This document shows positions 10,667 through 42,099 of a DNA stretch of 64,000 nucleotides, piece by piece. The stretch is taken from positions 5,267 through 69,266 of the forward strand of contig CALGBY010000063.1 in assembly GCA_937886445.1 (NCBI GenBank), written 5' to 3'. The notes beneath the pieces are model-generated. The model did no database searches. It saw only the letters and a program-made list of their open reading frames with translations, and had not been told where the DNA came from. Each line of letters begins with the position of its first letter. Position 1 is the first letter of the stretch. This DNA is from an uncultured Clostridia bacterium. Its GTDB lineage: Bacteria; Bacillota; Clostridia; Christensenellales; Aristaeellaceae. Made by a program: the position numbers and the translations under genes.

Positions 10667-12004
10667 TTGAATAAAGATATTCTTTGGGAAAAAGCCTGTG
10701 TACTCATTCGTGACGAACTGAATGAGGTGACATACAATACCTGGATCGTGTCCGGGCTAAAAGCACTCTCATTTGAAAACGACTGTTTTGTGCTTGAGGC
10801 AATAACACCGTTCTATTGCAATATCATCAGACAGCGATATATCAACCTGATAAATACATGCCTTACGCAGGCAGCGCAGCGTCCGGTCAGTGTCTCGGTG
10901 CTTACTCCCGCGGAAGCAGAGGAACACAAGACTGTTAAGGAACAGAAAAGCGCTCCTGTGAACGAAAGCAAAACCATACTGAATCCAAAATATACATTCG
11001 ATACATTTGTTGTCGGAAATAATAACCGTTTCGCGCATGCGGCATCGCTTGCTGTAGCCGAAGCGCCAGCCGATGCCTATAATCCGCTTTTTATCTACGG
11101 TGGCGTAGGTCTCGGAAAAACGCATCTTATGCATGCGATCGGTCATTTTGTTCTTGCTCAGAACCCGGAAACGCGTATCAGTTATCTGACAAGTGAAGAA
11201 TTCACTAATGAAGTGATCTCATCCATTCAGGACAGAAAGGCTTCCTCCAACTTCAGAGAAAAATACCGCAACATAGATATTCTGATGATCGACGATATTC
11301 AGTTTATTGCCGGTAAGGAAAGGACCCAGGAAGAGTTTTTCCATACATTCAATGCCCTTCACGATAACGGAAAACAGATCATCATCACTTCCGACCGTCC
11401 GCCCAAGGAGATCCCGAAGCTTGAAGAAAGGCTTTGCAGCCGTTTTGAATGGGGTCTTCTGGCTGATATCTCAAAGCCCGATCTTGAAACCCGCATTGCG
11501 ATCCTTCGTAAAAAAGCAGAGACTGATCATCTGGATATTGATGAAAATGTTCTCGAAATGATCGCCGAAAACATCTCCAGCAACATCCGTGAGCTGGAGG
11601 GCTGCCTTACAAGGCTCGTGCTGTACTCATCCCTTTCCGCTCTTTCCGATCAGCCGATCACCGTCGCTCTTGCGCGGGAAGCACTTTCCGATGTGTTCAG
11701 CAAAAACAGTCCTCACGTGCTGAACTGTGATGATGTCATGATGGCCGTTGCGGAATACTACGGTGTTACTTCTGATGATCTGCGTTCTCCCAAGCGTCAG
11801 CGTGCCGTTGCCGTTCCGAGACAAGTCGCCATGTATATATGCAGAGACATGGTAAACGCTTCTCTTCCTGTGATCGGGAACGCCTTCAACAGAGATCATA
11901 CTACAGTGATGCACGCCTGTGATAAGGTAAGTGAAGAGTTGAAGACCTCAATATCACTCAAGAACCTCATTTCCGATATCGAACATAAACTGAATAATAA
12001 CTGA
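10667..12004 (+). CDS. dnaA: chromosomal replication initiator DnaA
   Basis: AAA+ motifs (NPLFIYGGVGLGKTHL, ILMIDDIQF) and domain IV (HTTVMHACDKV). The N-terminal 23 codons of the ORF look non-native. TTG at 10667 follows GGGAGGG (10654-10660). Confidence 0.93.
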   Translation: MNKDILWEKACVLIRDELNEVTYNTWIVSGLKALSFENDCFVLEAITPFYCNIIRQRYINLINTCLTQAAQRPVSVSVLTPAEAEEHKTVKEQKSAPVNESKTILNPKYTFDTFVVGNNNRFAHAASLAVAEAPADAYNPLFIYGGVGLGKTHLMHAIGHFVLAQNPETRISYLTSEEFTNEVISSIQDRKASSNFREKYRNIDILMIDDIQFIAGKERTQEEFFHTFNALHDNGKQIIITSDRPPKEIPKLEERLCSRFEWGLLADISKPDLETRIAILRKKAETDHLDIDENVLEMIAENISSNIRELEGCLTRLVLYSSLSALSDQPITVALAREALSDVFSKNSPHVLNCDDVMMAVAEYYGVTSDDLRSPKRQRAVAVPRQVAMYICRDMVNASLPVIGNAFNRDHTTVMHACDKVSEELKTSISLKNLISDIEHKLNNN

Positions 12005-12143: not shown

Positions 12144-15100
12144 GTGTCAGCTTTGAAAAAGCGTTCATTCTTCTGCTTAACGGTTTCGATCGTTCTTCTG
12201 TTATCCGTTTTTATTTGTGCATACGCGTCCGATGAAGATGCTCCTTTCGGAGTCGTAAATGTTTCAACGGTTAACATGCGCGAATCCGACAGCATGAACT
12301 CAGGCATCGTTATGTCTGTAGGTCAGAACGAGAAGGTAAGTGTTCTTTGTGAATCGAACGGATTCTATAAAGTAAAATACAATAACAAAACCGGCTACAT
12401 CCTCTGTGAGTATATATCATTGGACGAAACGCTGATCGGAAAAAAGGCATATGCGGCGATCGGCAGTCTCAACATCCGCACCGGTCCCTCAACAGATAAT
12501 GATATTATTTACATAATGGATAAAAATGAAGAAATGACAGTGCTTGGCATCAGTGGTACATATTACCGTGTATCCTGCGGAAAAACCGAAGGGTATGTCT
12601 CAATGCAGTTCGTTTCTCTTCCGGAAAATGAAGAATATGGTATTTTCGGAAAAAATACCGTATGTATGATCACTGTTAACAGTGTAAACCTGCGCGAGTC
12701 TCCTTCTCTTTCATCCAATGTCATTGCTAAACTTACCAAGCAGGACCGTCTTTCTGTGATCTCGTGTTCAGACGGTTTTTACAAGGTAAAAGTAAATGGA
12801 AAAACCGGTTACGTTGCTTCGGAGTACTTAATAAAGGCGGATGACAGTGTTTCCTCCTCCGGTTCAAAAAGCGCAGATCCTTCCCCCACTCCGAGAAAAA
12901 CTGCTACTCCCTCCCTGCAGAAACTCAATAAATCAGGAACAGTCAATGTTGATTCGCTGAATGTGCGTGAAAGTCCGGATGCTTCTTCTGAAATCATTGA
13001 TAAGCTCATTCGCGGTACTGAGGTCAGCATCGTTGCGGAGACGAACGGATTTTATCAAATCAACCATGATCATCACACAGGATATGTCGCAAAACAGTAC
13101 ATCAGTATCAACGATCAGGATGCTAGAAAGAGCGCAACAGCTTTACCTTCTCAAAAAGATACTCTGCTCAATAAAAACGGCAGGACGAATGTTTCAGACC
13201 TTAACATGAGAGTCGGACCGTCTTCCGATACCGGGGTCATCATGAAGCTTTCCAGCGGAACAGAAGTGGATATCATAGGAGAAAACAACGGTTTCTATAA
13301 AATCAAGTATAACGGAAAAACCGGATATGTAAGCAAAGCATATGTGAACATTATAGAAAAGACCTCTGCGACTTCTGCCCCGGCAAAGAAAACGGAAACT
13401 GTAAAAGAAACTAAGAAAAGCGGTAAGGTCACTTCTCAAACCCTGAATGTAAGAAGTGAACCGAGCACGGAGAGCGCGATCATTACCGTATTGAGTTCCG
13501 GAACAGCATTGAATATCACAGGTGAAACCGATTCATATTACCGCATAACGGTCAATTCCAGAACCGGTTATGTAAGCAGGCAGTATGTTACAGTTATTAC
13601 AGCCACCCAGGCGCCATCCGCAAAGGCCGAGAACACCGGCGTCAAGGTTACAACTGTCAAAAAAAGCGGTTCCGTCATTTCTGAGACGCTCAATGTAAGA
13701 AAAGAAGCCAGTACCTCCTCAGCTGTCCTTACAGTTCTTCGCGAAGGGACGTCAGTATCGATCAACGGTGAAACGGATGAGTTTTACAGGATCGATATTC
13801 AAGGCAAAACAGGCTATATCGCCAAACAATATGTGAAGATCGGCAGCACCTCTTCCGGTGAGGCAAAAGCATCTGCTTCCGCTGATAAGATTAATTCTCT
13901 GAATGCGAAGGGTACGGTTTCTTCTTCTACCTTGAACATGAGAGCCGCAGCTGATAAATCATCGGATATCATCCTTGTACTGAATCACGGAACGGCGCTT
14001 AATGTGACCGGCGAAACAAAGGATTTCTACCGTGTTTCATACAATGGCAAAACCGGTTTTGTGAGCAAGCAATATCTGAACATTGACAACAGCAAAGCAG
14101 GTGAAAAGGCCACATCCTCCCCTCGTGCCACAGAAACGAAACCCACAGAAGCCTTTACATCCATCACAGCAAATGGCACCGTCAATACCGACGGTTTGAA
14201 CATGCGAAAAGAAGCTTCGACTTCCTCCGATTCGCTTTTGAAACTTCAAAAAGGCACAACAGTTTCCATTTCCGCGCAGAGCAAGAGCTTCTACAAGATC
14301 AAGTATAACGGAATGACGGGATATGTAGCAAAACAGTATGTTAATATTGTAAAAATCACTGCCGCTCCCAAGTCTGACAAAAAAACCGCCACTCCTTCCC
14401 CGAAGAAAACAGAAACTGCTGCCGTAGAAAAGTTTGAAACCTATACAGCAACAGGAAAGACAAACACCTCCGGCCTGAATCTGCGCAAAGAAGCTTCAAC
14501 ATCCTCAAAAAGTCTTGCTGTTCTCAATTCCGGTACATATCTGAATGTGATCGCACAGAGCAGAAATTTTTATAAGGTGAAAGTGAATTCTATTACCGGA
14601 TACATTGCCAAACAGTATGTATCCATTGTAAAAGAAACACCTAAACCCACCACAAAGCCTGCTGCACAGGCCGGAAAATTCGACAATGTCAAAACGATCT
14701 CCGAGCTTGGTGCAGCTCCCGGTTATCTTTCCTCAGGCAACAGCGGTGAGGATGTTGAAAAGCTGCAGCAGGCACTGAAGATAAAGGGTTATTACGAAGG
14801 TCAGGTAAACGGAAAATTCGGTTCCGAAACAAAGCAGGCTCTGATCGCATATCAGAAGGCTGCAGGGCTTGATCAAACCGGAAAGGCCGATTACAAAACG
14901 ATTCTCAAGCTTTTCGGGAAGGTCAGTGTCACCTCCGTTGCCGATGACCCCAAGATGAACGGGATCACAAAGATCTCCCAGATTTCCGTACCTGCCACCA
15001 GCAAGAAAGGTGACAGCGGCAAAAATGTTCTTGCGCTGCAGCAGGCGTTGAAGATCAAAGGCTACTACAAAGCACCAATCAATTCGGTATATGACAGTGT

Positions 15101-15617
15101 AACAACAGAAGCGGTCAAGGCGTATCAGAAGGCCAAAGGCATTACAGCTGACGGCGAAGCCGGTTTTTCAACGATCAAAGCGATATTCGGTGAGAATGCT
15201 GCGAACTATACCTATGTCACTGAATCGCTGGACTGGTTCAAAAACGGAGACAATACGATACCGAAGGGAGCGATCCTGACGGTAAAGGATGTCAATACCG
15301 GCAAAACATTCAAAGTAAAGCGGTGGAGCGGCGCAAATCACGCTGATGTAGAACCGCTCACAGCATCCGATACGGCCGTTATGAAGAGCCTGTACGGCAC
15401 CTGGAGCTGGTCCCGCAGAGCGATCCTGGTTCTCTATAAGGGTCATGTTTACGCTGCGTCCATGAACGGAATGCCTCACGGGACAAGCACGATCAATAAC
15501 AACAATTTCAACGGGCACTTCTGTATTCACTTTACCGGAAGCAAAACACACGCTTCAAAGAAGGTCGATCCGGATCACCAGGCTGCGATCAGACGCGCGC
15601 TGAAGGCAAAATGGTAA
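12144..15617 (+). CDS. secreted cell-wall-binding protein: 10 SH3b repeats + 2 PG_binding_1-like domains + unassigned C-terminal domain
   Basis: Signal peptide (FFCLTVSIVLLLSVFICAYA). Ten repeats of the pattern xLNVRxxPSxxSxVIxxLxxGxxVxV....FYK(V/I)xYNGKTGYVxxxYV, separated by S/T/P/K/A linkers. Two GxDVxxLQQALKIKGYY...AxxAYQKAxGLxxxGxA units follow. The last ~140 aa contain PHGTSTINNNNFNGHFCIHF. Confidence 0.9.
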   Translation: MSALKKRSFFCLTVSIVLLLSVFICAYASDEDAPFGVVNVSTVNMRESDSMNSGIVMSVGQNEKVSVLCESNGFYKVKYNNKTGYILCEYISLDETLIGKKAYAAIGSLNIRTGPSTDNDIIYIMDKNEEMTVLGISGTYYRVSCGKTEGYVSMQFVSLPENEEYGIFGKNTVCMITVNSVNLRESPSLSSNVIAKLTKQDRLSVISCSDGFYKVKVNGKTGYVASEYLIKADDSVSSSGSKSADPSPTPRKTATPSLQKLNKSGTVNVDSLNVRESPDASSEIIDKLIRGTEVSIVAETNGFYQINHDHHTGYVAKQYISINDQDARKSATALPSQKDTLLNKNGRTNVSDLNMRVGPSSDTGVIMKLSSGTEVDIIGENNGFYKIKYNGKTGYVSKAYVNIIEKTSATSAPAKKTETVKETKKSGKVTSQTLNVRSEPSTESAIITVLSSGTALNITGETDSYYRITVNSRTGYVSRQYVTVITATQAPSAKAENTGVKVTTVKKSGSVISETLNVRKEASTSSAVLTVLREGTSVSINGETDEFYRIDIQGKTGYIAKQYVKIGSTSSGEAKASASADKINSLNAKGTVSSSTLNMRAAADKSSDIILVLNHGTALNVTGETKDFYRVSYNGKTGFVSKQYLNIDNSKAGEKATSSPRATETKPTEAFTSITANGTVNTDGLNMRKEASTSSDSLLKLQKGTTVSISAQSKSFYKIKYNGMTGYVAKQYVNIVKITAAPKSDKKTATPSPKKTETAAVEKFETYTATGKTNTSGLNLRKEASTSSKSLAVLNSGTYLNVIAQSRNFYKVKVNSITGYIAKQYVSIVKETPKPTTKPAAQAGKFDNVKTISELGAAPGYLSSGNSGEDVEKLQQALKIKGYYEGQVNGKFGSETKQALIAYQKAAGLDQTGKADYKTILKLFGKVSVTSVADDPKMNGITKISQISVPATSKKGDSGKNVLALQQALKIKGYYKAPINSVYDSVTTEAVKAYQKAKGITADGEAGFSTIKAIFGENAANYTYVTESLDWFKNGDNTIPKGAILTVKDVNTGKTFKVKRWSGANHADVEPLTASDTAVMKSLYGTWSWSRRAILVLYKGHVYAASMNGMPHGTSTINNNNFNGHFCIHFTGSKTHASKKVDPDHQAAIRRALKAKW

Positions 15618-17026: not shown

Positions 17027-17971
17027 TCAGTTTTCACCGCTGAGAAGTCTGTGCATCTCATTGACCATATCGCTGTCCTTCAGGCGGAATTTGAATGTAA
17101 CTCGCCTTGAAGCGTCCTTATCCTCGATATTCGTACCGCTTACATAGATCGGATCCGCTTCGCTTCTTCCGGTAACGCAGAGCACCTTTTCAAACATTGC
17201 ACGCTGCGCGGCGGAAAGGCCCGGGATCTGTAAGCAGTATTCCGCAACTGCTCTCGCTCTTTCCTGCGAAAGCTTCATGTTCGATAAGTAGTCGCCGTCT
17301 GTATCAGTATGCCCTTCGATCGTGATCTCACCCACATAATCCTTGTATTCATCAGACAGCAGCACATTCAGATATACCGGCAAAAAGCGATTCAGAAAAT
17401 CCTTTCCGCTGTCCTTTATCATATAGGTGTTCTTGTCAAAAAGCACGGTGCTCTTCAGCACGATATCACCGGTCTTTTCATCAACAGAAGTATTCAGATT
17501 TGCCCTGGTAAGGGAAACGGAAAGCTTGGATATGATATCACTTCTCACACCGATCAGCTGCGCGATCTGCCGTTCTTTCTCCTTAAGAAGGTTTTCCTGT
17601 TCCTGATTTGTTAAAATCAGTCTGTCCAGTTCTGTCTGCTTTTCTCCAAGCAGGATCAGCATATTGCTTATCTCAGCCTGCTGCTCATCAATTCTGATTT
17701 GTGCAAGATCAAGCTCGTTCTCTCTTTCTGACAGCTGGATCTTCATTACATCCATGCTTGCGGTCTGTCCGATAATGATGATCCGCTGCTCTTCTATTTC
17801 ATTCTGACTGGCTATCAGGATCATCTTCTGCTGATTCAAACGATATACGCATACAAACACCGCCATGACAAAAAGCATCAGTAATGAGGCCATCATATCT
17901 GAATAACTGATCCAATGAGAGCCTCCGTCACCGTTTCCCGGTCTTCTGACACTTCGTTTTTCACGCATCAC
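17027..17971 (-). CDS. MotB/ZorB-like protein: TM plug with conserved Asp, ~90-aa coiled coil, OmpA-like peptidoglycan-binding domain
   Basis: HWISYSDMMASLLMLFVMAVF matches the MotB W..Y.D......F motif. Heptad region at ~aa 45-140. OmpA-like IEGHTDTDGDYLSNMKLSQERARAVAEY. Its start GTGATG overlaps the stop of the upstream gene. Confidence 0.85.
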   Translation of the reverse strand: MMREKRSVRRPGNGDGGSHWISYSDMMASLLMLFVMAVFVCVYRLNQQKMILIASQNEIEEQRIIIIGQTASMDVMKIQLSERENELDLAQIRIDEQQAEISNMLILLGEKQTELDRLILTNQEQENLLKEKERQIAQLIGVRSDIISKLSVSLTRANLNTSVDEKTGDIVLKSTVLFDKNTYMIKDSGKDFLNRFLPVYLNVLLSDEYKDYVGEITIEGHTDTDGDYLSNMKLSQERARAVAEYCLQIPGLSAAQRAMFEKVLCVTGRSEADPIYVSGTNIEDKDASRRVTFKFRLKDSDMVNEMHRLLSGEN

Positions 17972-19521
17972 AAAACCTCCGGTACGGTTTTTCCGTTCAG
18001 CCTATTGATCGCTCCCGTCAAATCGCGAACCGCGTTCTGAAGCGCCGAGCATTCACTGATCAGCATTGAAGGATCCGAGGAGGCCATCCCTGCCCTGCTT
18101 CGGATCTCATCTGCTTTTTCCAATGCGGCAGAAAGCAGTCTGCCCATCTGCTGTTCAAAAGAAGACAATGTTTTTTCAGTACTTGATGCAAATGAACCGG
18201 TCAGTGCGGTATATGCTTCACGCAGTGCATCTGCGCTGACACGCATGCCTTCCATAATGCTGCCGGATAATTGCTCGGTACCGTTCTGCTGCACGGAAAC
18301 AGCGTTCAATACACGTCCGCTCCATTCGGCGTAATTCTTCATGTCGTTTTTCAGCGTCTGCTGGCTGTTTTCCAGGGCTGCAAGCAAATCACTCTGTTCC
18401 TGCGCAGACGCCATCATTCCGGATAGTATCTCTGAGGAATGCCGCAAAAAGTCATCGTTGCTTCGATCATGTTCAGACAGCGTATCGATCATGGCTGACA
18501 GGCGTTTTCCGGCATATTCGGTAGCCGTTTGTACACCCTTCAGGCTGTTCATCATGTTTTCCACACTGCTCAGTGTTTGATCGATGCTTTGTATGTTGAT
18601 CTGCTGTTCACGGTTCACTTCAGAAAGAGTCTCCCCCAGAGAAAGCAGTTGTCCGCTCATCTCTTCATTGAGCTTCAGAATGAAGTTATGTACGATCGCA
18701 TTCAGTCCTTCGATCTGTGACTGTGTTTCACCGGCAATAAAGCGGCTTATGCTGCTGCTAACGGGTGCAAGAGAGCCTTCTACTGCGGTCACGATACCGG
18801 ACGATACCCGTTCCGCGATAGAATCTACGCCATGCCTAAGCATAACGCTCTGATCCTCCTGCTGAATGATCATCCTTACGCTGTCATCAACAGGACGCTG
18901 CATAACGATTTCAGAGAATGTATCCTGAAAATTATCAAGTGCCTTGACTGCGCTTCCGTTTACCGTTTTGCAGATGATGTTGAAGCAAAGAGAGCAGGCA
19001 ACACCGGCAACGGAGGTTGAAAACGCAAATGTCATACCGCTTACCATATTGCTGATGGAATCAACAAGCTGCTCATTGCCTGCGTTCAGGTCCAGACCGC
19101 CAAGACCTCTGATCAAACCGATAAATGTACCAAGAATACCGATACTGGTAAGCAGCCCGGGCACGATCTCGCTCAGCTGCATATGGCCAACGGCATATAT
19201 CGTTGAGTCATCATTGATATAGTCATCAACATTGCATGTCAGTCCTCTCGCGTCCAGCTGGATCGCGTTGCTCAAAAAACGGTTCCACGCGCACTCAAGC
19301 CGTTTTCCGAGGAACAGGCTGTTCTGCCACCGCGGTGTGCCGGTAGCATCGGTCGCAGCAGGATCCCGCAGGATCCCCGAAGCCGCGCTTTTAAGGCATG
19401 CAGCAACACGCATGACCGGAAAAATACATTTAAGAAAACCTATCAGCGTAACGATCGCGATCGCGCCGTATACAAGAACATCAATGATATTACTGCCGAT
19501 ATACTGAAAAACCGATCCCAT
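17968..19521 (-). CDS. MotA/TolQ/ExbB-family proton-channel protein with ~330-aa C-terminal helical tail (ZorA-like architecture)
   Basis: TM1 is VLVYGAIAIVTLIGFL. Channel core is LLTSIGILGTFIGLIRGL and GMTFAFSTSVAGVACSLCFNI. The remainder is S/Q/E/L/N-rich with few Pro. The ATG at 19521 follows GGAAAGGAG; the track start at 19560 is a TTG. Confidence 0.8.
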   Translation of the reverse strand: MGSVFQYIGSNIIDVLVYGAIAIVTLIGFLKCIFPVMRVAACLKSAASGILRDPAATDATGTPRWQNSLFLGKRLECAWNRFLSNAIQLDARGLTCNVDDYINDDSTIYAVGHMQLSEIVPGLLTSIGILGTFIGLIRGLGGLDLNAGNEQLVDSISNMVSGMTFAFSTSVAGVACSLCFNIICKTVNGSAVKALDNFQDTFSEIVMQRPVDDSVRMIIQQEDQSVMLRHGVDSIAERVSSGIVTAVEGSLAPVSSSISRFIAGETQSQIEGLNAIVHNFILKLNEEMSGQLLSLGETLSEVNREQQINIQSIDQTLSSVENMMNSLKGVQTATEYAGKRLSAMIDTLSEHDRSNDDFLRHSSEILSGMMASAQEQSDLLAALENSQQTLKNDMKNYAEWSGRVLNAVSVQQNGTEQLSGSIMEGMRVSADALREAYTALTGSFASSTEKTLSSFEQQMGRLLSAALEKADEIRSRAGMASSDPSMLISECSALQNAVRDLTGAINRLNGKTVPEVL

Positions 19522-19740
19522 CGGAACACGCTCCTTTCCAGACTCATCATATTTTAGCAAATTATCAAAAGATTTTCAATCCATATTGTCTTTTACAGCA
19601 AATATGTTACAAACCGCAAGCTCATAAGCCGCAGCGTCGATAAGTGATCTGTATTTGCTGTTTTTTCATAATATTCGCATTGACGCGGTATTGTATTTAA
19701 TGATAAAATTGGAATATCGACTATGGAGGTTTCTTTGACG

Positions 19741-20983: not shown

Positions 20984-21916
20984 TTGATCGACGCGGCAAA
21001 ATTTATCAAGGAACTGGAATTGAGCGTTTTGTCTCCTTCTACAGCTGAAAGCTGGGATGTACGCTCTGCCGAACTGAACAGGCCGGGCCTGCAGTTCGTA
21101 GGATATTTCGACTATTTCGCGCACGAACGTCCTCAGGTGATCGGAAAGGTCGAAATGGCTTATCTGGACAGCCTCGATGATGAAGCGCGGGTAGAAAGGC
21201 TGATAAAATTCTTTTCCTACCCTATGCCCTGCATCATCATCTGCCGCGGGATGAGACCGCCGGTAGAATTGCTTGAGCTTGCAAAAGAACATGATGTGCC
21301 TGTCCTTTCGACTGATGTCGTCACAACAAAGTTCTTTGTTCGGGCAATCAACTACCTCGGCAGAGAGCTTGCCCCCCGCTCAACGATTCACGGTGTACTT
21401 GTGGATGTATACGGTGTAGGTGTGTTGATCACCGGTGACAGCGGCGTAGGAAAGAGTGAAACAGCTCTGGAGCTTGTCAAACGCGGACATCAGCTGGTCG
21501 CGGATGACGCTGTTGAGATCTGCAGGGTGAATGATAACCGTCTTGTAGGACAGAGCCCTGAAAACATTCGTCACTTCATGGAGATCCGCGGGATCGGCAT
21601 CATTGACATCAAAGCGATGTACGGTGTCGGTGCTGTTCTGACCTCCAGAAGCATTGATATGGTGATTCATCTTGAGCCCTGGAAAGAAACAAAGAGCTAC
21701 GATCGTCTGGGTCTCAGTGAAGAATTCACTTCCATCATGGATGTGAAAGTTCCCCAGATCGTGGTTCCTGTACGCCCCGGCCGCAACCTTGCCATCATTG
21801 TGGAGGTTGCAGCGCGCAACTTCAGTTTGAAACAGATGGGCTACTCCGCTGCCAAAGAGCTGGACAGGCGCCTTACAGAAATGATGATGAATTCCATGAA
21901 CCGCAACAACAAATAG
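20984..21916 (+). CDS. hprK: HPr kinase/phosphorylase
   Basis: HGVLVDVYGVGVLITGDSGVGKSETALELVKRGHQLVADDAVEI and MEIRGIGIIDI. TTG at 20984 follows GAGGTGA; the track start at 20927 is also a TTG. Confidence 0.9.
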   Translation: MIDAAKFIKELELSVLSPSTAESWDVRSAELNRPGLQFVGYFDYFAHERPQVIGKVEMAYLDSLDDEARVERLIKFFSYPMPCIIICRGMRPPVELLELAKEHDVPVLSTDVVTTKFFVRAINYLGRELAPRSTIHGVLVDVYGVGVLITGDSGVGKSETALELVKRGHQLVADDAVEICRVNDNRLVGQSPENIRHFMEIRGIGIIDIKAMYGVGAVLTSRSIDMVIHLEPWKETKSYDRLGLSEEFTSIMDVKVPQIVVPVRPGRNLAIIVEVAARNFSLKQMGYSAAKELDRRLTEMMMNSMNRNNK

Positions 21917-21934
21917 TATCCGGAGGAAATTTCT

Positions 21935-22879
21935 ATGATCCGTATCGGAATAGATCTCGGCGGTACGAATATCGCCGTCGGCGCTGTGGATAATGCCGGA
22001 CATATTCTGGCAGAATGGTCTGTAAAAACACTTGCCTCCCGTCCTTATCAGGATATCGTGAGGGATATGGGCTTCTGCATCGGTAAGGTGCTTGATAAGA
22101 CAGGAAACTCGGCTAAGGATATCGAAGCGATCGGCATCGGTATACCCGGGCTGGCCGATCAGAAGACGGGCAGAGTCATTTTTTGCACAAATCTCGGCTG
22201 GCATGATATCCCGCTGGCGAAAGAATTGGGCAAATATTATTCCGCCCCCGTCTATATTGATAATGACGCTACAGTAGCCGGATACGCCGAATACATCGCC
22301 GGTATCAGCAAAGGAACTGAAAGCAGCGTATTTATCACACTGGGTACCGGTGTGGGTGCCGGCATCGTACTGAACGGGCGCCCGTTCAGCGGCTATCATG
22401 GGATCGGAAGCGAGATCGGACATACAACAGTTGAAACAGAAGGTGATCTGTGCACCTGCGGCAATAAAGGCTGTGCGGAGCGTTACTGTTCGGCAAGTGC
22501 TATCATTCGCTTCGCCAGAGAAGTTGCAGCGCAGCATCCCGAATCAGCCATGATGAAAAAGGCCGATGGAGATATCAGTCGAATCAGCGCGAAGACCGTG
22601 ATCGACTCCGCGAAAGAAGGTGATCGGACAGCCTGTGGCATTTTTGACAAATATGCTCACTATCTCGCTGTCCTGATCAATAATGTCACTGCAACGCTAG
22701 ATCCTGAAATGATCGTTCTCGGCGGAGGAGTCAGTCATGCCGGCAGCTTTCTTCTTGAAGCCGTACAGAAGCATATTCCTTCGCTGATGCTTTACAAGAC
22801 ACTCCCCTATCCCAAGATCGTACTCGCGACGCTCGGAAACGAGGCCGGCATCATTGGTGCCGCTATGCTCGGAAAATAA
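21935..22879 (+). CDS. glcK: ROK-family glucokinase
   Basis: IGIDLGGTNIAVGAVD, DNDATVAG and the ROK zinc motif GHTTVETEGDLCTCGNKGCAERYCS. Confidence 0.9.
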   Translation: MIRIGIDLGGTNIAVGAVDNAGHILAEWSVKTLASRPYQDIVRDMGFCIGKVLDKTGNSAKDIEAIGIGIPGLADQKTGRVIFCTNLGWHDIPLAKELGKYYSAPVYIDNDATVAGYAEYIAGISKGTESSVFITLGTGVGAGIVLNGRPFSGYHGIGSEIGHTTVETEGDLCTCGNKGCAERYCSASAIIRFAREVAAQHPESAMMKKADGDISRISAKTVIDSAKEGDRTACGIFDKYAHYLAVLINNVTATLDPEMIVLGGGVSHAGSFLLEAVQKHIPSLMLYKTLPYPKIVLATLGNEAGIIGAAMLGK

Positions 22880-29704: not shown

Positions 29705-30433
29705 TCAGTTGCACCGGATGATATCATCACGCAGTCTGTATATCGTTGCACCGTACTTTTTTCTGCAAAAAGCGTCAACAAACCAGTCGATCTCCTTGAC
29801 AGCATTGAACTGAACATAGCCATAACGGATCCCGTCTACTCTCGTCCCCTTCATATTGCTGTCGCACCATGTCACAGTGTCCTTTTCGGGGTCATAATCC
29901 TCGGTAAATACGAGGCTGTGCGCACCGACACCGTAATAGTAGTTTGCGGCCATCTGGAAGTAATCCCCTCTTTGTACCTGCATAAGGAAAGCTCTTGCCT
30001 TCTCACGGTTTTCCGCCTTTGAAAGAGAAGGATCATATCTGAACGTAGCCGCGGCATAGAACGGATTCCCGTCAGCAGCAGGAATATCCTTCCATTCACA
30101 GCCGTATACATACTCCTTACATTCCTCTTTGGGCTTATTGTCAGGAATGACCAGCTTTGTATCCGGAAACTCCGCCATTCTGTACCCGTCAGCATTTTGC
30201 CTAAAAAGGTAAACCGTGAAATTCTTACATATATATATATCTCCGGCATATTGGGCACGCTGTTTTTTACCCTTTGTTTCTTTGAATTTCTGCTCGGCAA
30301 GAGAAATAATGCTGTCGATCAGTTCATCACGCGGTGATTGCTCCTCACCTGATCCGGCAAATGCAAATGAAGACAGAATAGACGACAATACGCAGAGAAA
30401 ACAGGTCGTTATAATTATCCACCTTTTCTTCAT
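29705..30433 (-). CDS. secreted hypothetical protein, possible papain-like Cys/His hydrolase
   Basis: Signal peptide MKKRWIIITTCFLCVLSSILSSFAFA. Candidate catalytic Cys (GDIYICKNFTVYLF) and His (GDYFQMAANYYYGVGAHSLVF) follow NlpC/P60-like order. The family call is weak. Confidence 0.6.
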   Translation of the reverse strand: MKKRWIIITTCFLCVLSSILSSFAFAGSGEEQSPRDELIDSIISLAEQKFKETKGKKQRAQYAGDIYICKNFTVYLFRQNADGYRMAEFPDTKLVIPDNKPKEECKEYVYGCEWKDIPAADGNPFYAAATFRYDPSLSKAENREKARAFLMQVQRGDYFQMAANYYYGVGAHSLVFTEDYDPEKDTVTWCDSNMKGTRVDGIRYGYVQFNAVKEIDWFVDAFCRKKYGATIYRLRDDIIRCN

Positions 30434-30451
30434 AACGGATTCACCCTCCAT

Positions 30452-34291: not shown

Positions 34292-34831
34292 TTATTCACC
34301 GGTTTTCCAACCGACCGCCACTCCCCATATACCGGATAAACGCCAGCTTACATGATCAAAGCCGGTGCTCTCCATCAGACGCATCAGTTCTTTCTTTTCC
34401 GGGTATATATCTTTCTTTCCGCAAAAAATCTTGGTAAGGATCACTGCCTGTCCGCCCGGCTTCAATACTCTGTTTGTTTCGCATAGTACTCTTTCAGCGT
34501 TTTCCTTCTTTATCAGTTCACCTGCAAGCACAGCGTCAAAAGCGCCGTCCCGCCAGGGAATGTCATCAGGCTCTGCGAAAACGATATCGCTGTTATAAAG
34601 TCTTTCACGCAGTTCACGCGAATACTGTACATCCTGACAGATCCCGCACACATTCAATCTCAGCTTTTCACATAGAGCTGAAAGGAGCGCGCCATCACGG
34701 CAAAAAAGATCCAGCACACTGTCATGCTCCTCCAGCGTAGCCCAATTCATAACAGCCCTCATGCCGGATGTAAGTCGATTCTTTTTCTCTTTGATTTCTG
34801 TATTTTGCCAACCGCTCGTCTTTGTTATCAT
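34292..34831 (-). CDS. class I SAM-dependent methyltransferase
   Basis: VLDLFCRDGALL (motif I), FDAVLAGELI and LKPGGQAVIL. Confidence 0.8.
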   Translation of the reverse strand: MITKTSGWQNTEIKEKKNRLTSGMRAVMNWATLEEHDSVLDLFCRDGALLSALCEKLRLNVCGICQDVQYSRELRERLYNSDIVFAEPDDIPWRDGAFDAVLAGELIKKENAERVLCETNRVLKPGGQAVILTKIFCGKKDIYPEKKELMRLMESTGFDHVSWRLSGIWGVAVGWKTGE

Positions 34832-36581: not shown

Positions 36582-36657
36582 GGGGCATTAGCACAGTTGG
36601 TAGCGCGCTACATTCGCATTGTAGAGGTCAGCGGTTCGAATCCGCTATGCTCCACCA
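36582..36657 (+). tRNA. tRNA-Ala (anticodon CGC)
   Basis: Manual cloverleaf: GGGGCAT/ATGCTCC acceptor with G3:U70, D arm GCAC-AGTTGGTA-GCGC, anticodon arm CTACA-TTCGCAT-TGTAG, T arm AGCGG-TTCGAAT-CCGCT, and an encoded CCA. Confidence 0.9.
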
Positions 36658-36664
36658 TACAGAA

Positions 36665-36723
36665 GAAATCCGAACCTGATCCCGATTGGGAATGGGTTCG
36701 GATTTCTTTGTTTCCTCTCAAGT
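36665..36723 (+). terminator. terminator after tRNA-Ala
   Basis: GAAATCCGAACC...GGTTCGGATTTC followed by TTTGTTT. Confidence 0.7.
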
Positions 36724-37770: not shown

Positions 37771-38355
37771 TTACACGGTAATGCCGGCATAAGGTATACA
37801 ATAAATCAAACATTCCGCCGCGTCATGAATATCCTCATCCTCCGGTAGTTCTCCGTTCCTTGCACAGCATTCAAACTCATCCACAATGTTCTCTATCAGC
37901 ACCATATCAATAAACAGCTGAAGCTGATCAAGCAATTCATCAGGTATATCCGTCTCTGTCCGGTAACCGGAAAGCACAGTATCAAAATAATGCTTCATAT
38001 AGGCCATACGTTCATCCGCGTTCGTGATATGTCTGCACCAGCCCTCACCGTGCGTCCACAGGTTTGCAAGATCAAACATATACCAGCATTTTATACAGTT
38101 ATCAAAATCAAATACTGTGATCCTTCCGTCATCCATATTGATATGATAATTACCATCACTGAAATCGAAATGAACCATTCCAAATGTCTCAGGATCAACA
38201 GGCTGCCTGTCAAACAATTCAAAACACCGGAAGATGGCAGCTTTCAATATCTCATATCGATCAGGAATGCATAGACGAATATCGGTCACACGGCCTCCGG
38301 ATCCGTGATCATCATCCATTTCCAAAAAATCTACGTATGTATTACTTTTCCTCAT
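37771..38355 (-). pseudogene. APH/CotS-type phosphotransferase-family gene, C-lobe only (probable N-terminal truncation)
   Basis: Catalytic loop HFDFSDGN (HxDxxxxN) and the metal-binding FDFDN motif are present. The whole ATP-binding N-lobe is missing. Only 175 bp of stop-ridden sequence lies upstream. Confidence 0.55.
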
Positions 38356-38530: not shown

Positions 38531-41500
38531 TTATCCCACCACCAGCTTATTTGTCTTCCTCAAAAATTTTGCCGGTATCGGATGATCAAGCCGCCAGGTG
38601 ATATTCATAGGCTTTTCGCCGTCATGTATTACATAGTTAGCTGTTCCGAGATAGGTGTATGTAGCGGCACTGCCGGAGATCACGTCTGTTTTGAACTCAC
38701 GTACGAACAGCAGGATCCTGCTGCCTTTTTCCTGGTGATAAATATAGCGCCGGCCGGTAGGAGAATCAGATGCCGTTGTACTTTGACTTTGCCAATGGAA
38801 AAGATCACTGTTGATTGAATAATCATTATACATGGTAGTAGGCGAATAATCCTTATCCGACTTGTTCAAAGTCACAAATAACACATCCAGATTTTTCTCC
38901 GGCAGCCATTTAACCCCCTCTCTGACGGTGGACGGCTTCATGAAATCCAATGCGACCAATAGTTGATCACGGGTATAGGTACAGTGCAGATCCAACGGAC
39001 AGTCAAAACCGATCGGAACAGGCTCGTCAATAAAATCGATATGATCATAATTGTACTGCAGCAGCTCCGTCAATTCACCCAGCATCAACGGACTATCCGC
39101 AAGCTGATAAAGATTCCCCAGCACCTCATCGCTGTTCCAATCCTCCGCAGACTTGCCCCATATGGTAACATAGAACATCCGCATCATACGCTTTTCCATA
39201 TCGGGCAGCTCGTCAAAATTCACATCACCCAGTCGCGGCAAAATATCCAGCAAAAAGCTGATCCAACGGCGGGAATCAATGGTACACAGTCGTGCGAAAG
39301 CCTTTTCCATCACGGTCTCTGCCGGCTCTGAGAAATCATCTGTCACATCCGCTCTGGCGCAAAGCCGTGAAAAGGTACTGAATTTATAAATCATTCGTGG
39401 GTCGATATGATAATGATCCAGAAAGCTCGTCAGGGTAAGCTTCAGCCCGGTATCCTCCTCAAATGAAGCGATACGTGTTAAAAGCCCGTTACTGTTGCTG
39501 TAGGATGCACGGATATTATCCAGAATGTATTTTGCCGCCTGCTTCTCCAATTGTATATAGCAGCCTTTAGGCAATGCAATAAATCCATTCCTGATCTCAC
39601 GAGCTAAACTGCGGGCAGAATTGGACAGCAGAGAGTCAAACTTATCCTCAAAATTGTATTTTCTGTTAGCCTGTCCAATGAAATCCAGTACTGTCAGACA
39701 ATCCTTCCCTTCACACAGGCGCAGGCCGCGGCCCAGCTGCTGCAGAAAGACAGTAAGAGATTCAGTAGGACGCAGGAACAGCACTGTGTTGACCTCAGGA
39801 ATATCAACACCCTCATTATAGATATCAACTACAAAAATAAAGCGGATCTCACCGGAAACCAGACGGTTTTTCGCTGTTTTTCTTTCTTCATCACACGTTT
39901 TTCCGCTCAGATGGATAGATGGGATACCGTGCGCATTGAAATAGTCACACATGAACTCCGCATGCTCAACAGTTACGCAAAAGCCCAGTCCCTTTACATC
40001 ATCAATATCCGTTACATATTTCATCACTGAAGACAATACATGATCCGCACGACGATCGGCTATTGCACCGCTGAGCGTGTAAACCTCTGAGAGCTCTCCC
40101 CTGTCGTAACCGCCTTTGACCCATTTCAGCTGGTTCAGGTCGACTGTATCAGTAACACCGAAATATTGGAACGGACAAAGGAGCTTACGATCGATCGCTT
40201 CCGGCAGACGAATTTCCGCAGCAATACGATTGTTGAAATATTGCAGGATATTTCTGCCGTCCATACGTTCCGGCGTTGCTGTCAGGCCCAGCAGGACCTT
40301 TGGCTGATAATATTTCAACAGCTTCTGATAAGCCGGCGCTGCAGCATGGTGAAATTCATCAACGATGATATAGTCATAAAAATCCGGTGTAGTTTTTGTG
40401 GTAAAATCCTGTGAATTGAATGTCTGGATGGAAATGAACAGGTTTTCAATGCCGTCCGGCTTATAACTCCCGACAAACATCTCCCCGAAATTCACATCCT
40501 TCAGAACTGCCCTGAAGGTATAAAGACTTTGCTTCAGGATCTCTTCACGATGTGCGACAAACAAAAGGCGGCAAGGCTTACCGGCGTTTTTCCTTCGGAA
40601 ACGCTTATAATCCAGTGCTGAAATAACTGTCTTTCCTGTACCGGTGGCAGCAACTACCAGATTTCGCATATATCCGCGCACACTGCGTTCAGCCTCAAGC
40701 TTGTCCAGGATCTCCTGCTGATAGGAATAGGGCCGGATATCCAGCGAATACATTTCCGGATCATTGGTATCAAAATATTTCTCAGCTTTAAGCGCCCGTG
40801 CAAGGCGCTCTTTCTGCTCTTCATCATAATATTCAAATTCACCGGAATTCCAATAGCTTTCAAAGGTCGCGGAGATCTTGTCGATCGTTTCCGGCAGGTC
40901 CTTTTTCGTCACCTTCACGTTCCATTCAAGCCCGCTGGATATAGCGGCATTGGAAAGATTGGAGGAACCGACATATGCCGTGGTAAAGCCGGTATCACGA
41001 TAGAACATATAAGTCTTTGCGTGCAGGCGGGTGCGTTTGGTATCATAGCTGACCTTGATGCACGTGTTCGGCAGCTTACGCAGCTCCTCAATGGCTTTTA
41101 CATCCGTAGCACCCATATAGGATGTTGTAATAATACGCAGATGACCTCCGTTCTGAGTAAAGGATGTCAGTTCTTCCATGATCAGACGCAGTCCGCTCCA
41201 CTTTATGAAAGAAACCAGCATATCTATACGGTCGCATGACAGGATCTCCTTTTTCAGCTCGGTAAACATTTGAGGCTCATGGATTGCGCCGGTAAAGAGG
41301 GAGCTTTGCGCGATGGAAGTTTCCGGGCGAATAATCTCAGCCTTCCTATCCAGCGCAAACATACTGTTTTTCCTGTCAAAAAGCGCAAGAAGCTGTTCAG
41401 CCCGTTCCGCGACTGAAAGTGTATCAAAGTCATCTTCATTTGTTTCGCTCCTGATGGTGGAAACAATGCGGTTTACGAGCCCGACTTGCGAATACAGATC

Positions 41501-41680
41501 ACCGCCTTTGTCTTTTACGTTATTGAGCCCCTTTTCAACAATTCCGGCAACGTATTTTGCCAACACCTTGGATGCTTCCGCACTGTCTATCTGCACGGTC
41601 TGTGAGAGCTTGTCTGTAACAGAAAGCTCTGAATCAAGTCCTTTATTTATGATTTGTTCATAAAGTCCATTATGAAGCAT
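38531..41680 (-). CDS. PLD (HKD) nuclease + SF2 DEAD/DEAH-type helicase + DUF3427-like C-terminal domain protein
   Basis: Single HKD motif LHAKTYMF...YVGSSNLSNAA. Helicase motifs are I VAATGTGKT, II IVDEFHH, III GLTATPER and VI QQLGRGLR. The C-terminal ~300 aa end in FHWQSQ...ILLFVRE...YTYLG, which I recall as DUF3427. Strong RBS AGGAGG. Confidence 0.9.
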   Translation of the reverse strand: MLHNGLYEQIINKGLDSELSVTDKLSQTVQIDSAEASKVLAKYVAGIVEKGLNNVKDKGGDLYSQVGLVNRIVSTIRSETNEDDFDTLSVAERAEQLLALFDRKNSMFALDRKAEIIRPETSIAQSSLFTGAIHEPQMFTELKKEILSCDRIDMLVSFIKWSGLRLIMEELTSFTQNGGHLRIITTSYMGATDVKAIEELRKLPNTCIKVSYDTKRTRLHAKTYMFYRDTGFTTAYVGSSNLSNAAISSGLEWNVKVTKKDLPETIDKISATFESYWNSGEFEYYDEEQKERLARALKAEKYFDTNDPEMYSLDIRPYSYQQEILDKLEAERSVRGYMRNLVVAATGTGKTVISALDYKRFRRKNAGKPCRLLFVAHREEILKQSLYTFRAVLKDVNFGEMFVGSYKPDGIENLFISIQTFNSQDFTTKTTPDFYDYIIVDEFHHAAAPAYQKLLKYYQPKVLLGLTATPERMDGRNILQYFNNRIAAEIRLPEAIDRKLLCPFQYFGVTDTVDLNQLKWVKGGYDRGELSEVYTLSGAIADRRADHVLSSVMKYVTDIDDVKGLGFCVTVEHAEFMCDYFNAHGIPSIHLSGKTCDEERKTAKNRLVSGEIRFIFVVDIYNEGVDIPEVNTVLFLRPTESLTVFLQQLGRGLRLCEGKDCLTVLDFIGQANRKYNFEDKFDSLLSNSARSLAREIRNGFIALPKGCYIQLEKQAAKYILDNIRASYSNSNGLLTRIASFEEDTGLKLTLTSFLDHYHIDPRMIYKFSTFSRLCARADVTDDFSEPAETVMEKAFARLCTIDSRRWISFLLDILPRLGDVNFDELPDMEKRMMRMFYVTIWGKSAEDWNSDEVLGNLYQLADSPLMLGELTELLQYNYDHIDFIDEPVPIGFDCPLDLHCTYTRDQLLVALDFMKPSTVREGVKWLPEKNLDVLFVTLNKSDKDYSPTTMYNDYSINSDLFHWQSQSTTASDSPTGRRYIYHQEKGSRILLFVREFKTDVISGSAATYTYLGTANYVIHDGEKPMNITWRLDHPIPAKFLRKTNKLVVG

Positions 41681-41964
41681 AGCGTCCTCCTGATAGGATC
41701 AAAAACTAATATTTTTGTTTCATGCTATTCAGTGAATTTCAGATTGCATTCTTCTCTCCATCAGCTTAAAAATCATAACAAACTCGGATATCTGTCAAAG
41801 ATATTATACAATATATGCAAACAGTCTGCAATCCAATAACTTTTGCACAAACTCAAAACTGTTGACCGCTGCTGACTACCGTTTGACTGCCATAGTATAC
41901 TAAAGCCTGTATTTATATGATACGATATAGCATATCTGCCTTTTGAAGCTTTCGCAAAAACATC

Positions 41965-42008
41965 AAAAAAGAAGCCCTAAACCCTTATTTTCTAAGGATC
42001 TAAGGCTT
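41965..42008 (-). terminator. terminator after tRNA-Arg
   Basis: On the minus strand, AAGCCTTAGATCCTTA-GAAAA-TAAGGGTTTAGGGCTT (16-bp stem with G:U pairs) followed by CTTTTTT. Confidence 0.65.
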
Positions 42009-42022
42009 TTCATGGCGCGCCC

Positions 42023-42099
42023 TGGGGGATTCGAACCCACGACCTTTTGATTCGTAGTCAAACACTCTATCCAGCTGAGCTAAGGGCGCATTCACTGTC
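42023..42099 (-). tRNA. tRNA-Arg (anticodon ACG)
   Basis: Manual cloverleaf: GCGCCCT/AGGGCGC acceptor, D arm GCTC-AGCTGGATA-GAGT, anticodon arm TTTGA-CTACGAA-TCAAA, T arm GTGGG-TTCGAAT-CCCCC (one U:C mismatch), and an encoded GCCA. Confidence 0.85.

Follow-up and report, generated by a model that had tools for sequence, protein, structure and literature searches.

What does a gene encode that, in a single polypeptide, joins a PLD-family nuclease to a helicase-like ATPase and a domain named DUF3427? We addressed this question for a 1,049-residue protein encoded in a 64,000-nucleotide stretch of DNA from an uncultured Clostridia bacterium (the window). An earlier note had proposed an NTP-driven, translocating nuclease directed against foreign nucleic acid, and had held its three-domain architecture to be without an experimentally defined function. 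Our analysis upholds the first of these views and corrects the second.

Gene and domain architecture

The reading frame (38531..41680, minus strand) is intact, with an ATG at its start and a stop codon at its end, according to the ORF listing and the translation. Its parts are as follows.

38531..41680, minus strand: complete CDS of a probable SauUSI-family Type IV restriction endonuclease, 1,049 residues plus stop (PADLOC, 7CLG and Foldseek matches)
41336..41680, minus strand: N-terminal helical extension, residues 1–115 (conserved in relatives; AF2 helices; no SauUSI counterpart)
40811..41335, minus strand: PLD-family nuclease domain, residues ~116–290 (Pfam PLDc_2 and RE_NgoFVII; residues mapped to 7CLG)
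40739..40810, minus strand: flexible linker between nuclease and ATPase, residues ~291–314 (AF2 pLDDT below 50 at 304–311)
39500..40738, minus strand: SF2 helicase-like ATPase with two RecA-like lobes, residues ~315–727 (Pfam ResIII and Helicase_C; aligned to SauUSI 221–617)
38990..39499, minus strand: α-helical coupler domain, residues ~728–897 (collinear profile alignment to the SauUSI coupler, 618–805, with no break)
38534..38989, minus strand: C-terminal target-recognition domain (TRD; DUF3427, SRA-like), residues ~898–1049 (Pfam DUF3427; aligned to the SauUSI TRD, 808–921)

Every motif quoted in the earlier note is present in the translated protein: LHAKTYMF (residues 219–226), which holds H220-x-K222, the sole HxK of the 1,049-residue protein; YVGSSNLSNAA (236–246); VAATGTGKT (343–351); DEFHH (441–445); TATPER (467–472); and QQLGRGLR (647–654). 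The ATPase motifs are thus Walker A (GTGKT, 347–351), Walker B or motif II (DEFH, 441–444), motif III (TAT, 467–469) and motif VI (QQLGRGLR, 647–654). Four Pfam domains are found with E-values far past chance: PLDc_2 (165–277, 5e-11), ResIII (315–472, 1.4e-35), Helicase_C (560–655, 3.8e-13) and DUF3427 (893–1040, 1.8e-24; 87 bits against a cut-off of 27.7). The last of these matches bears out the earlier note's naming of the C-terminal domain as DUF3427. The coupler is all-helical in the AF2 model at residues 730–879, and the equivalent of the linker in SauUSI is the disordered segment of residues 192–220 (PMC7913695).

Compared with 85%-identical homologues, the gene has ~460 synonymous and ~160 non-synonymous codon differences and 0 indels, a strong synonymous excess that indicates purifying selection. 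Its composition (GC 0.463, GC3 0.50) is only mildly atypical against a GC3 of 0.53–0.67 in most of the compared neighbours (DUF4332 0.38, GH95 0.51), and is not strong evidence for recent transfer.

Relationship to SauUSI and proposed mechanism

SauUSI is the ATP-dependent Type IV enzyme of Staphylococcus aureus USA300 (Xu et al. 2011, PMC3141236), for which a crystal structure (7CLG; PMC7913695) and a single-molecule study (bioRxiv 10.1101/2025.10.16.682607) are available. It is the best match to the window protein across the whole length, by sequence and by structure. A single-sequence phmmer comparison with 7CLG gave E=6.9e-91, and a profile built from 88 relatives gave E=3.3e-170, with profile positions 125–1020 aligned collinearly to SauUSI 29–921. 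The AF2 model of the protein (pLDDT 90.4, pTM 0.85) retrieved 7clg_A as the first Foldseek hit (E=5.7e-48, 936 columns, TMt 0.62, identity ~24–25%), the runners-up being helicase-only structures at ~1e-17. SauUSI residues H119, K121, N139 and E150 map onto H220, K222, N241 and E252 in the alignment to 7CLG, and these four residues, together with the ATPase motifs, are invariant in the 88 diverse relatives (35–57% identity).

The two proteins carry the same elements in the same order on one polypeptide: a single-HKD PLD domain, a disordered linker, an SF2 ATPase, a helical coupler and an SRA-like TRD (DUF3427). Neither enzyme's gene adjoins a cognate methyltransferase gene. They differ in length (953 residues in SauUSI, 1,049 here), in Walker B (DEAH in SauUSI, DEFH here), in the ~115-residue helical domain that the window protein carries in addition at its N terminus, and in two pocket positions (M829 and Y831 in SauUSI, E921 and V923 here). 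We conclude that the gene probably encodes a SauUSI-family, single-polypeptide, autonomous, modification-dependent Type IV restriction endonuclease. To regard the architecture as lacking any function defined by experiment is wrong, since it is exactly that of SauUSI (PMC3141236, PMC7913695, bioRxiv 10.1101/2025.10.16.682607), and this view is countered as well by the full-length model that PADLOC holds for the clade (mREase_IV, PDLC03659), which matches residues 114–1039 on model positions 12–935 of 945 with E=1e-230. By contrast, the proposal of an NTP-driven, translocating PLD-type defence nuclease acting on foreign DNA gains support from the SauUSI-family match.

With its near full-length match, the PADLOC model shows that standard defence-annotation tools already detect the clade, although it omits the N-terminal 113 residues of the window protein and its label is a family annotation, not an experiment on the long-form clade. 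We found no characterized member of that clade in the literature searched. The gene is real but ordinary, a further member of a well-studied family of ATP-driven enzymes that move along foreign DNA bearing modified cytosines and cut it; its discovery value is small because SauUSI already establishes architecture and mechanism and annotation tools already detect the clade. A functional label would nonetheless aid genetics in bacteria carrying these proteins: by analogy with S. aureus, such enzymes may block transformation by Dcm-methylated Escherichia coli plasmid DNA.

From homology to SauUSI (PMC3141236; PMC7913695; bioRxiv 10.1101/2025.10.16.682607) we infer how the window protein may work, including its dimerization, modification dependence, translocation and the modification that it reads. 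Two protomers would pair through their single-HKD PLD domains to form one nuclease centre, as the single HKD motif and 7CLG suggest. The SRA-like C-terminal domain (DUF3427) would flip a modified base, most likely 5-methyl- or 5-hydroxymethylcytosine, from incoming DNA, with D953 and W963 forming part of the pocket. The helical coupler would relay this recognition to the SF2 ATPase and so activate it, and the motor would then translocate along double-stranded DNA, extruding a loop. The PLD centre would cut away from the site, and repeated cycles would shred modified phage or plasmid DNA. Host DNA would be spared because the recognized modification is missing from it.

Target-recognition pocket and N-terminal extension

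The suggestion that the C-terminal domain might be a PUA/EVE-like modified-base reader agrees with its homology to the SauUSI TRD, which has an SRA fold (PMC7913695); the SRA domain is shown among representative PUA-superfamily domains (PMC6765204). Within the TRD, Y902, K940, D953, R994 and G1012 are invariant in relatives, and G922, T937, Y951, W963, Q966 and F992 are nearly so. Of the six SauUSI residues modelled as the base-flipping pocket, four are kept or conservatively replaced in our alignments (D858 to D953, W868 to W963, F841 to F935 and I842 to V936), the roles in SauUSI being themselves model-based. The other two differ (M829 to E921 and Y831 to V923), and the resulting 'REGV' is the family consensus. 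These two replacements make the modification read uncertain. In particular, 5mC specificity is not to be assumed, because the proposed methyl contact of SauUSI, Y831 (PMC7913695), is V923 here.

We therefore considered whether the protein is a SauUSI-like motor-nuclease whose TRD, throughout this clade, reads another mark (cytosine that is glucosylated or hypermodified in some other way, 6mA or a further hypermodified base), so that its targets differ from those of SauUSI. Besides the two pocket replacements and the clade consensus, this reading can draw on the way in which the SauUSI pocket roles were assigned, by modelling on SUVH6; the excerpts of PMC7913695 contain no mutagenesis of the pocket residues. 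It can also draw on the DUF3427-PD-(D/E)XK fusions McaZI, BwiMMI, EfaL9I and YenY4I (Lutz et al. 2019, PMC6765204), in which DUF3427 proteins bound 5mC and 5hmC DNA and restricted T4gt with little or no endonuclease activity in vitro. These fusions, which restrict the 5hmC phage T4gt and are frequent in defence islands (PMC6765204), have the DUF3427 modified-cytosine-sensing domain in common with the window protein, but carry it at the N terminus, use a PD-(D/E)XK rather than a PLD nuclease and are ATP-independent because they have no helicase. Against another mark stands the conservation of D858/D953 and W868/W963, the residues proposed to hydrogen-bond and stack with the flipped cytosine, and likewise of Y856/Y951 and Y809/Y902, all invariant or nearly so, which argues for a cytosine-type ligand. 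On balance we regard a different mark as rather unlikely.

The N-terminal extension is the sole architectural difference from SauUSI. Residues 1–115 are kept in most of the diverse representatives, with G5, Y7, N70 and L97 near-invariant, and AF2 predicts helices at 6–22/13–21, 33–57, 62–80 and 83–88 (pLDDT 81–97). The extension is without detectable relatives in sequence or structure: Pfam gave 0 matches at E≤10, a PDB profile search nothing significant (best E=0.18) and Foldseek on a dedicated AF2 model nothing significant (best E=1.4). We suggest, tentatively and with low confidence, that the extension and the altered TRD pocket may together set apart a functionally distinct subtype of Type IV enzymes of the PLD-helicase kind. 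Such a subtype could differ in modification specificity or be subject to an extra layer of regulation, for example autoinhibition, a changed oligomeric state, or a means of sensing or resisting phage anti-restriction proteins, and would be abundant in Oscillospiraceae, Ruminococcus and other Clostridia assemblies. The modification specificity of this long-form clade, whose pocket diverges from that of SauUSI and which carries the additional N-terminal domain, is of modest scientific interest.

Locus, family and alternative readings

The signals and boundaries of the locus are listed below.

42013..42089, minus strand: tRNA-Arg(acg), upstream boundary of the locus (ARAGORN; also in the close relative L022)
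41972..42008, minus strand: terminator-like hairpin and T-run directly after tRNA-Arg, dividing the upstream transcription unit from the gene
41803..41831, minus strand: promoter-like TTGCAG-17 nt-TATAAT with a TG-extended −10, found by eye 122 nt upstream of the ATG
41686..41691, minus strand: Shine–Dalgarno sequence AGGAGG, 5 nt before the start codon
36582..36657, plus strand: tRNA-Ala(cgc), the other end of the ~5.3-kb segment between the tRNA genes (ARAGORN)

Both tRNA genes that the earlier note had taken as boundaries are real, and the region upstream of the gene (41681–42012) is indeed AT-rich (GC 34.6% against 47.2% for the window). The TTGCAG/TATAAT element is tentatively the promoter of the gene. 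A consensus scan omitted it because its −35 hexamer matches at just 3/6 positions; that scan gave 15 sites against 13.4 ± 3.6 in shuffled controls, which is no excess. The surrounding genes of the window are transporter, sugar-utilization and housekeeping genes, and the gene lies outside any defence island. A 562-bp deletion has removed the 5′ half of the adjacent APH-family gene. No DNA methyltransferase is encoded by the 30 other larger ORFs of the window that were scanned, the nearest methyltransferase (34292–34831) belonging to general SAM-methyltransferase families (Methyltransf_11/25, ubiE/COQ5) and to no DNA-methylase family.

The description of the locus as variable holds in part. More distant relatives have the same sugar-uptake operon but lack the gene downstream of it; L022, the one close relative that was found, does carry the gene. 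No att-like repeats flank the gene. A search for direct repeats or tRNA-fragment duplications around the inter-tRNA segment gave only short repeats at chance level, and homologous loci do not regularly show a tRNA beside the gene; for these two reasons a tRNA-targeted integrative element carrying the gene was rejected. The sole phage-integrase-family gene among the ORFs scanned (1335–2456) is ~36 kb away. No strain-level empty site was found, exact look-ups of the SauUSI-like protein, the solute-binding protein and the MatE transporter being empty. A search of the E. coli genome likewise gave no match, so the window does not come from E. coli.

The family is very large, with 3,722 representatives at E≤1e-30 and at least 8,000 protein clusters in the close-homologue search. 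Among the matches listed, the closest homologues come from Oscillospiraceae, Ruminococcus and other Clostridia assemblies, and the databases searched name these proteins only 'DUF3427 domain-containing protein', 'DEAD/DEAH box helicase' or 'superfamily II helicase'. Their neighbours differ at every locus and are often rich in defence and toxin–antitoxin genes: they include Wadjet JetABCD, Type I R-M, BREX PglX/PglZ/BrxL and Fic, as well as PARIS-like AriA, Septu-like PtuA, AbiLi, HipA and ParE. Across the homologue loci compared there is no conserved partner gene, in keeping with the earlier description of a gene that stands alone.

This bears on whether the protein is instead the effector subunit of a multi-gene system whose partners choose the target, as in MANTIS (MtsD), PbeA/dnd_restrict_1 or DISARM (DrmC with DrmA). 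Matches come from the PbeA models of PADLOC, which hit the PLD-helicase core (4e-39), and in part from NCBIfam dnd_restrict_1 (5.6e-20), and MtsD has been described as a SauUSI-like ATPase-PLD module (bioRxiv 10.64898/2026.09.23.753747). In CglI/NgoAVII (R2H2), MtsD, PbeA and DrmC alike, a PLD-family nuclease and an SF2 motor work together to cleave DNA at the expense of ATP; unlike the window protein, these systems comprise several subunits or genes, act on unmodified DNA or on marks of other kinds, and have neither coupler nor SRA-like TRD. The window protein has its own TRD, as does SauUSI but not MtsD (same preprint), and no neighbour is conserved across loci, so that we consider an effector role very unlikely. 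The Dnd-associated dnd_restrict_1/PbeA assignment was rejected on score (TIGR04095, 71.8 bits against a cut-off of 600) and on the partial PbeA matches, and DndFGH/PbeABCD models are not among the 25 most frequent families in the neighbour scans. DrmC and Mokosh MkoB, which the earlier note had offered as comparisons, are remote: their matches are marginal and confined to the PLD region (E=4.8e-4 and 8.9e-4), both assignments were rejected, and the window holds no DrmA/B or MkoA neighbour. Type I HsdR of the EcoAI/FtnUII type (NF046051, 115.4 against 550 bits, helicase core only) and TIGR00348 hsdR (16.8 bits against a cut-off of 284.55) were rejected as well.

A housekeeping helicase-nuclease of DNA repair or replication restart, RadD- or XPB-like, would suit the housekeeping, transporter and sugar-utilization neighbours, and the helicase core does resemble RadD (PDB 6JDE, E=4e-17; Foldseek 1.5e-17). 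The resemblance is confined to the ATPase, however, and RadD was rejected on score (NF053632, 83.5 bits against a cut-off of 720), whereas nuclease, coupler and SRA-like TRD all match SauUSI. With the gene missing at the syntenic position in relatives and its contexts elsewhere variable and defence-rich, a housekeeping role is extremely improbable. We give just as little credence to an inactive relic of a decaying defence gene. Some homologues do appear split (317 + 739 residues in L016, 501 + 530 in L019), and the neighbouring APH-family gene is truncated; against decay, the frame is intact over 1,049 codons, the catalytic and ATPase residues are complete, synonymous differences are in strong excess and the ribosome-binding site is intact.

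Relation of the window protein to SauUSI

The ORF listing and translation give an intact ORF of 1049 codons with an ATG start. The earlier note had read PLD, SF2 and DUF3427 motifs in its 1049-aa product; every quoted motif is found in place, Pfam agrees, and the C-terminal domain named there as DUF3427 indeed matches that family.

Motifs and Pfam domains of the window gene (38531..41680 (-)) and its product.
5 nt before the ATG (-): AGGAGG
aa 165-277: PLDc_2 (Pfam)
aa 219-226: LHAKTYMF, containing the sole HxK in the protein
aa 238-241: GSSN
aa 315-472: ResIII (Pfam)
aa 343-351: Walker A, VAATGTGKT
aa 441-445: DEFHH
aa 467-472: TATPER
aa 560-655: Helicase_C (Pfam)
aa 647-654: QQLGRGLR
aa 893-1040: DUF3427 (Pfam, E=1.8e-24)

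The PADLOC model PDLC03659 ('mREase_IV', Type IV methyl-directed restriction enzyme) matches aa 114-1039 (E=1e-230), and its sister model PDLC03658 matches at E=1.5e-94. With the window protein as query, the top match by far among solved structures is 7CLG (E=6.9e-91). This is the crystal structure of SauUSI, a Type IV restriction endonuclease from S. aureus that depends on ATP (PMC7913695). A profile built on alignment A1, in which the window protein is joined by 87 diverse relatives at 35-57% identity, is collinear with SauUSI (E=3.3e-170; profile 125-1020, SauUSI 29-921) through the nuclease, linker, ATPase, coupler and target-recognition domain (TRD). An AlphaFold2 model from A1 (mean pLDDT 90.4, pTM 0.85), compared with the PDB by Foldseek, places 7clg_A and 7clg_B on top (E=5.7e-48, 936 aligned columns, TMt 0.62); the runners-up RadD, LlaBIII and HsdR (~1e-17) have the helicase alone in common with the window protein. 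By these sequence and model matches, the three-domain architecture of the window protein is that of SauUSI. The statement in the earlier note that this architecture had no experimentally defined function is thus refuted: a first description appeared in 2011 (PMC3141236), a review in 2013 (PMC3874153) and a solved structure in 2021 (PMC7913695), followed in 2025 by a single-molecule dissection (bioRxiv 10.1101/2025.10.16.682607). Homology to SauUSI bears out the direction of that note (a defence enzyme, a translocating PLD nuclease and a modified-base reader), and the claim of novelty falls. The window protein is an uncharacterized new member of the SauUSI kind; nothing in it is left unexplained but a helical extension at the N-terminus and two substitutions in the pocket.

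The extension, aa 1 to ~115, lies upstream of the region alignable to SauUSI or to the PADLOC model, and SauUSI lacks it. It is genuine and no annotation artefact, because the RBS is positioned at the first ATG, homologues share its length and coverage, and its residues are conserved. Among the matches listed, each of the 120 closest clusters is ~1049 aa long and covers 97-100% of the query; in most of the best 150 of 40,234 50%-identity representatives the alignment begins at residue 2-5, and a few representatives (945, 961, 900 and 917 aa) are without the extension, like SauUSI. Conservation reaches at least 90% for G5 and Y7 in A1 and again in the N-terminal alignment A3, for L97 and P119 in A1, and for N70 in A3. 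AlphaFold2 predicts a helical bundle (pLDDT 81-94 as part of the whole protein, up to 97 when modelled alone), for which no match was found in Pfam at E<=10, among PDB sequences (best E=0.18) or with Foldseek (best E=1.4).

Catalytic residues, base pocket and proposed mechanism

In SauUSI, the PLD residues H119, K121, N139 and E150 were each changed to alanine by Xu et al. (PMC3141236), and in vitro activity is lost on mutating any of them (PMC3874153). In the alignment to 7CLG they correspond to H220, K222, N241 and E252 of the window protein, all invariant in the 88 sequences of A1. Also invariant there are the Walker A residues T346, G347, G349, K350 and T351, as well as D441, E442, H444, H445, T467-T469, R472 and Q647-R654. 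For the TRD, Tumuluri et al. modelled a base-flipping pocket lined by Y831, F841, I842 and W868, with D858 hydrogen-bonding the flipped cytosine and M829 filling the gap left in the duplex (PMC7913695).

SauUSI pocket residues and their counterparts in the window protein (profile alignment).
M829: E921, in the A1 family consensus 'REGV'
Y831: V923, in the A1 family consensus 'REGV'
F841: F935
I842: V936
D858: D953, invariant in A1
W868: W963, at least 90% conserved in A1

By this alignment, the cytosine-contacting and stacking residues appear to be retained and the proposed methyl-contacting tyrosine replaced. We take this to mean that the TRD is a predicted reader of modified cytosine, its exact modification left unspecified.

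SauUSI itself is established to be a dimer joined via its PLD domains, in which ATPase activity rises strongly once the TRD recognizes 5mC or 5hmC. One motor then translocates unidirectionally while the partner TRD stays anchored at the site, so that a loop enlarges; cleavage follows on arrival at the end of the DNA, at a preferred sequence or at a second modified site, and repeated cycles shred the DNA (PMC3141236, PMC7913695, bioRxiv 10.1101/2025.10.16.682607). We propose the same scheme by homology for the window protein, leaving the modification unspecified. It would dimerize via its PLD domains, and recognition of a modified base by the TRD would stimulate the ATPase. One motor would translocate and the loop grow while the partner TRD holds the site; cleavage would come at the same three kinds of place, with repeated cycles shredding the DNA. 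The host's own DNA is predicted to lack the modification that is read.

The replaced tyrosine bears on the reading that the architecture is the same and the TRD recognizes another modification than SauUSI does; with D953 and W963 retained, we consider this unlikely, if well worth keeping in mind. Dependence of the protein on partners, as an effector, is quite improbable; no neighbour gene recurs across the loci examined. A repair helicase, with which the match to RadD would agree, is scarcely plausible, as that match covers the helicase alone. Equally hard to credit is an inactive relic. The window gene differs from its counterpart on contig L022 by 31 synonymous and 15 non-synonymous codons, and from three 85%-identical homologues by ~460 synonymous and ~160 non-synonymous codons, with no indels between it and those three; this synonymous excess and the lack of indels indicate purifying selection. 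Two distant homologues appear split into two ORFs (L016:168-3319, 317+739 aa; L019:10001-13132, 501+530 aa) and are either pseudogenes or assembly frameshifts. The reading we retain is a SauUSI-type enzyme with a predicted modified-cytosine reader.

Genomic setting of the window gene and its homologues

The earlier note had placed the gene in a tRNA-bounded variable locus behind an AT-rich region. Both tRNA genes are confirmed, and GC content is 34.6% in the intergenic stretch upstream of the gene and 47.2% over the window.

Features around the window gene.
36582-36657 (+): tRNA-Ala(cgc), bounding tRNA
37771-38355 (-): 194-aa ORF, remnant of an APH-family gene with a new N-terminus
41831->41803: tentative TG-extended -10 promoter TTGCAG-17-TGTATAAT, 122 nt upstream of the start
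42008->41972: terminator-like hairpin after tRNA-Arg; the window gene lies between it and the APH-family remnant
42013-42089 (-): tRNA-Arg(acg), bounding tRNA

Directly after tRNA-Ala, an inverted repeat (36663-36708; 21-nt perfect-stem-like, 86% complementary, 4-nt loop) is probably its terminator.

The window locus is no defence island. Around the gene are ABC exporters, a MatE transporter and a sugar-uptake operon (DUF5696, two permeases, solute-binding protein), and the window also holds glycoside hydrolases, RpoD, DnaG and a class II aminoacyl-tRNA synthetase (D/K/N family); no DNA methyltransferase was found among the window ORFs scanned. The L022 contig has 98.7% nucleotide identity to the window and the same arrangement; relative to L022, the window carries a 562-bp deletion at ~38268 (L022:13412-13973). 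Lost with it are the promoter region and first ~167 codons of an APH-family (phosphotransferase) gene of 332 aa that follows closely downstream of the restriction gene. Sugar-operon relatives at 50-67% identity keep the operon, and none has the restriction gene or tRNA downstream. This absence is no more than faintly suggestive of a variable locus, given how distant these relatives are in evolution. No att-like repeats were found around the inter-tRNA segment, and a tRNA adjoining the gene does not recur at homologous loci.

Elsewhere in the window, a phage-integrase-family tyrosine recombinase (1335-2456 (+)), in a low-GC stretch at the window start (GC 0.398 over 1001-2000), may mark a mobile-element edge and, ~36 kb off, is unrelated to the restriction gene. 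A DnaA-family gene (10598-12004) adjoins the gene (12144-15617 (+)) for a very repetitive 1157-aa cell-wall-binding protein with some ten bacterial SH3_3 repeats plus two peptidoglycan-binding domains. At E<=1e-5, Pfam returned nothing for ORFs 17968-19560 (-), 21380-22537 (-) and 29705-30451 (-) (530, 385 and 248 aa).

Across the loci examined (eight from genomes and a few from metagenomes), the neighbours of the homologue change from locus to locus. On a 333-kb metagenome contig, an 80%-identical homologue lies directly beside a complete Wadjet system (JetA-JetB-JetC-JetD; L023:11390-17963), together with a Fic protein and a DUF2726/AAA_12 helicase, a clear defence island. At two loci (L024:11160-12665 and L025:11160-12665), a 501-aa AAA_30/SLFN-g3 (Schlafen-like, DUF2075-type) helicase starts 16 nt past the homologue; this pairing may be functional, because possible cooperation between DUF2075-domain proteins and DUF3427-DUF3883 fusion enzymes was suggested by Lutz et al. 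2019 (PMC6765204). In an Oscillospiraceae lineage (L001-L010), a 215-aa T5orf172/MUG113 protein always lies upstream across a 59-nt gap (L001:9294-9941), a 105-aa ORF with no family match follows (L001:13201-13518), and HipA or ParE toxin-antitoxin genes and a phage terminase are close by; this may be a small lineage-specific cassette. The 95 ORFs flanking the eight genome homologues include defence matches (Type I REase and MTase, BREX PglX/PglZ/BrxL, mad2/mad3, PtuA-like and AriA-like ATPases, AbiLi, Abi_2 and RhuM) and ordinary genes (LeuRS, PTS components, GH1). The lack of a recurrent neighbour fits an autonomous, horizontally mobile defence gene.

Size and distribution of the family

A word-indexed search returned at least 8,000 candidate clusters, every one at E<=1e-10, and an exhaustive search of 50%-identity representatives returned 40,234 at E<=1e-3, 22,148 at E<=1e-10 and 3,722 at E<=1e-30. 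Database names for homologues are only 'DUF3427 domain-containing protein', 'DEAD/DEAH box helicase' and 'superfamily II DNA or RNA helicase'. Assemblies labelled Eubacteriales, Oscillospiraceae, Ruminococcus sp., Erysipelotrichaceae and Tissierellales contain relatives at 66-85% identity, as do short contigs assigned to Prevotellaceae or Bacteroidales bins; in Peptoclostridium, Pseudoalteromonas, Hymenobacter and Arthrobacter, long-form homologues at 39-51% identity are carried by megaplasmids or chromids. Three entries of a phage collection (MT837245.1, MT835817.1 and MT836409.1) carry full-length long-form homologues at 39-56% identity; these short, unannotated 'Bacteriophage sp.' contigs come from human faecal viromes and may represent either genuine phage-borne copies or bacterial DNA within virome preparations.
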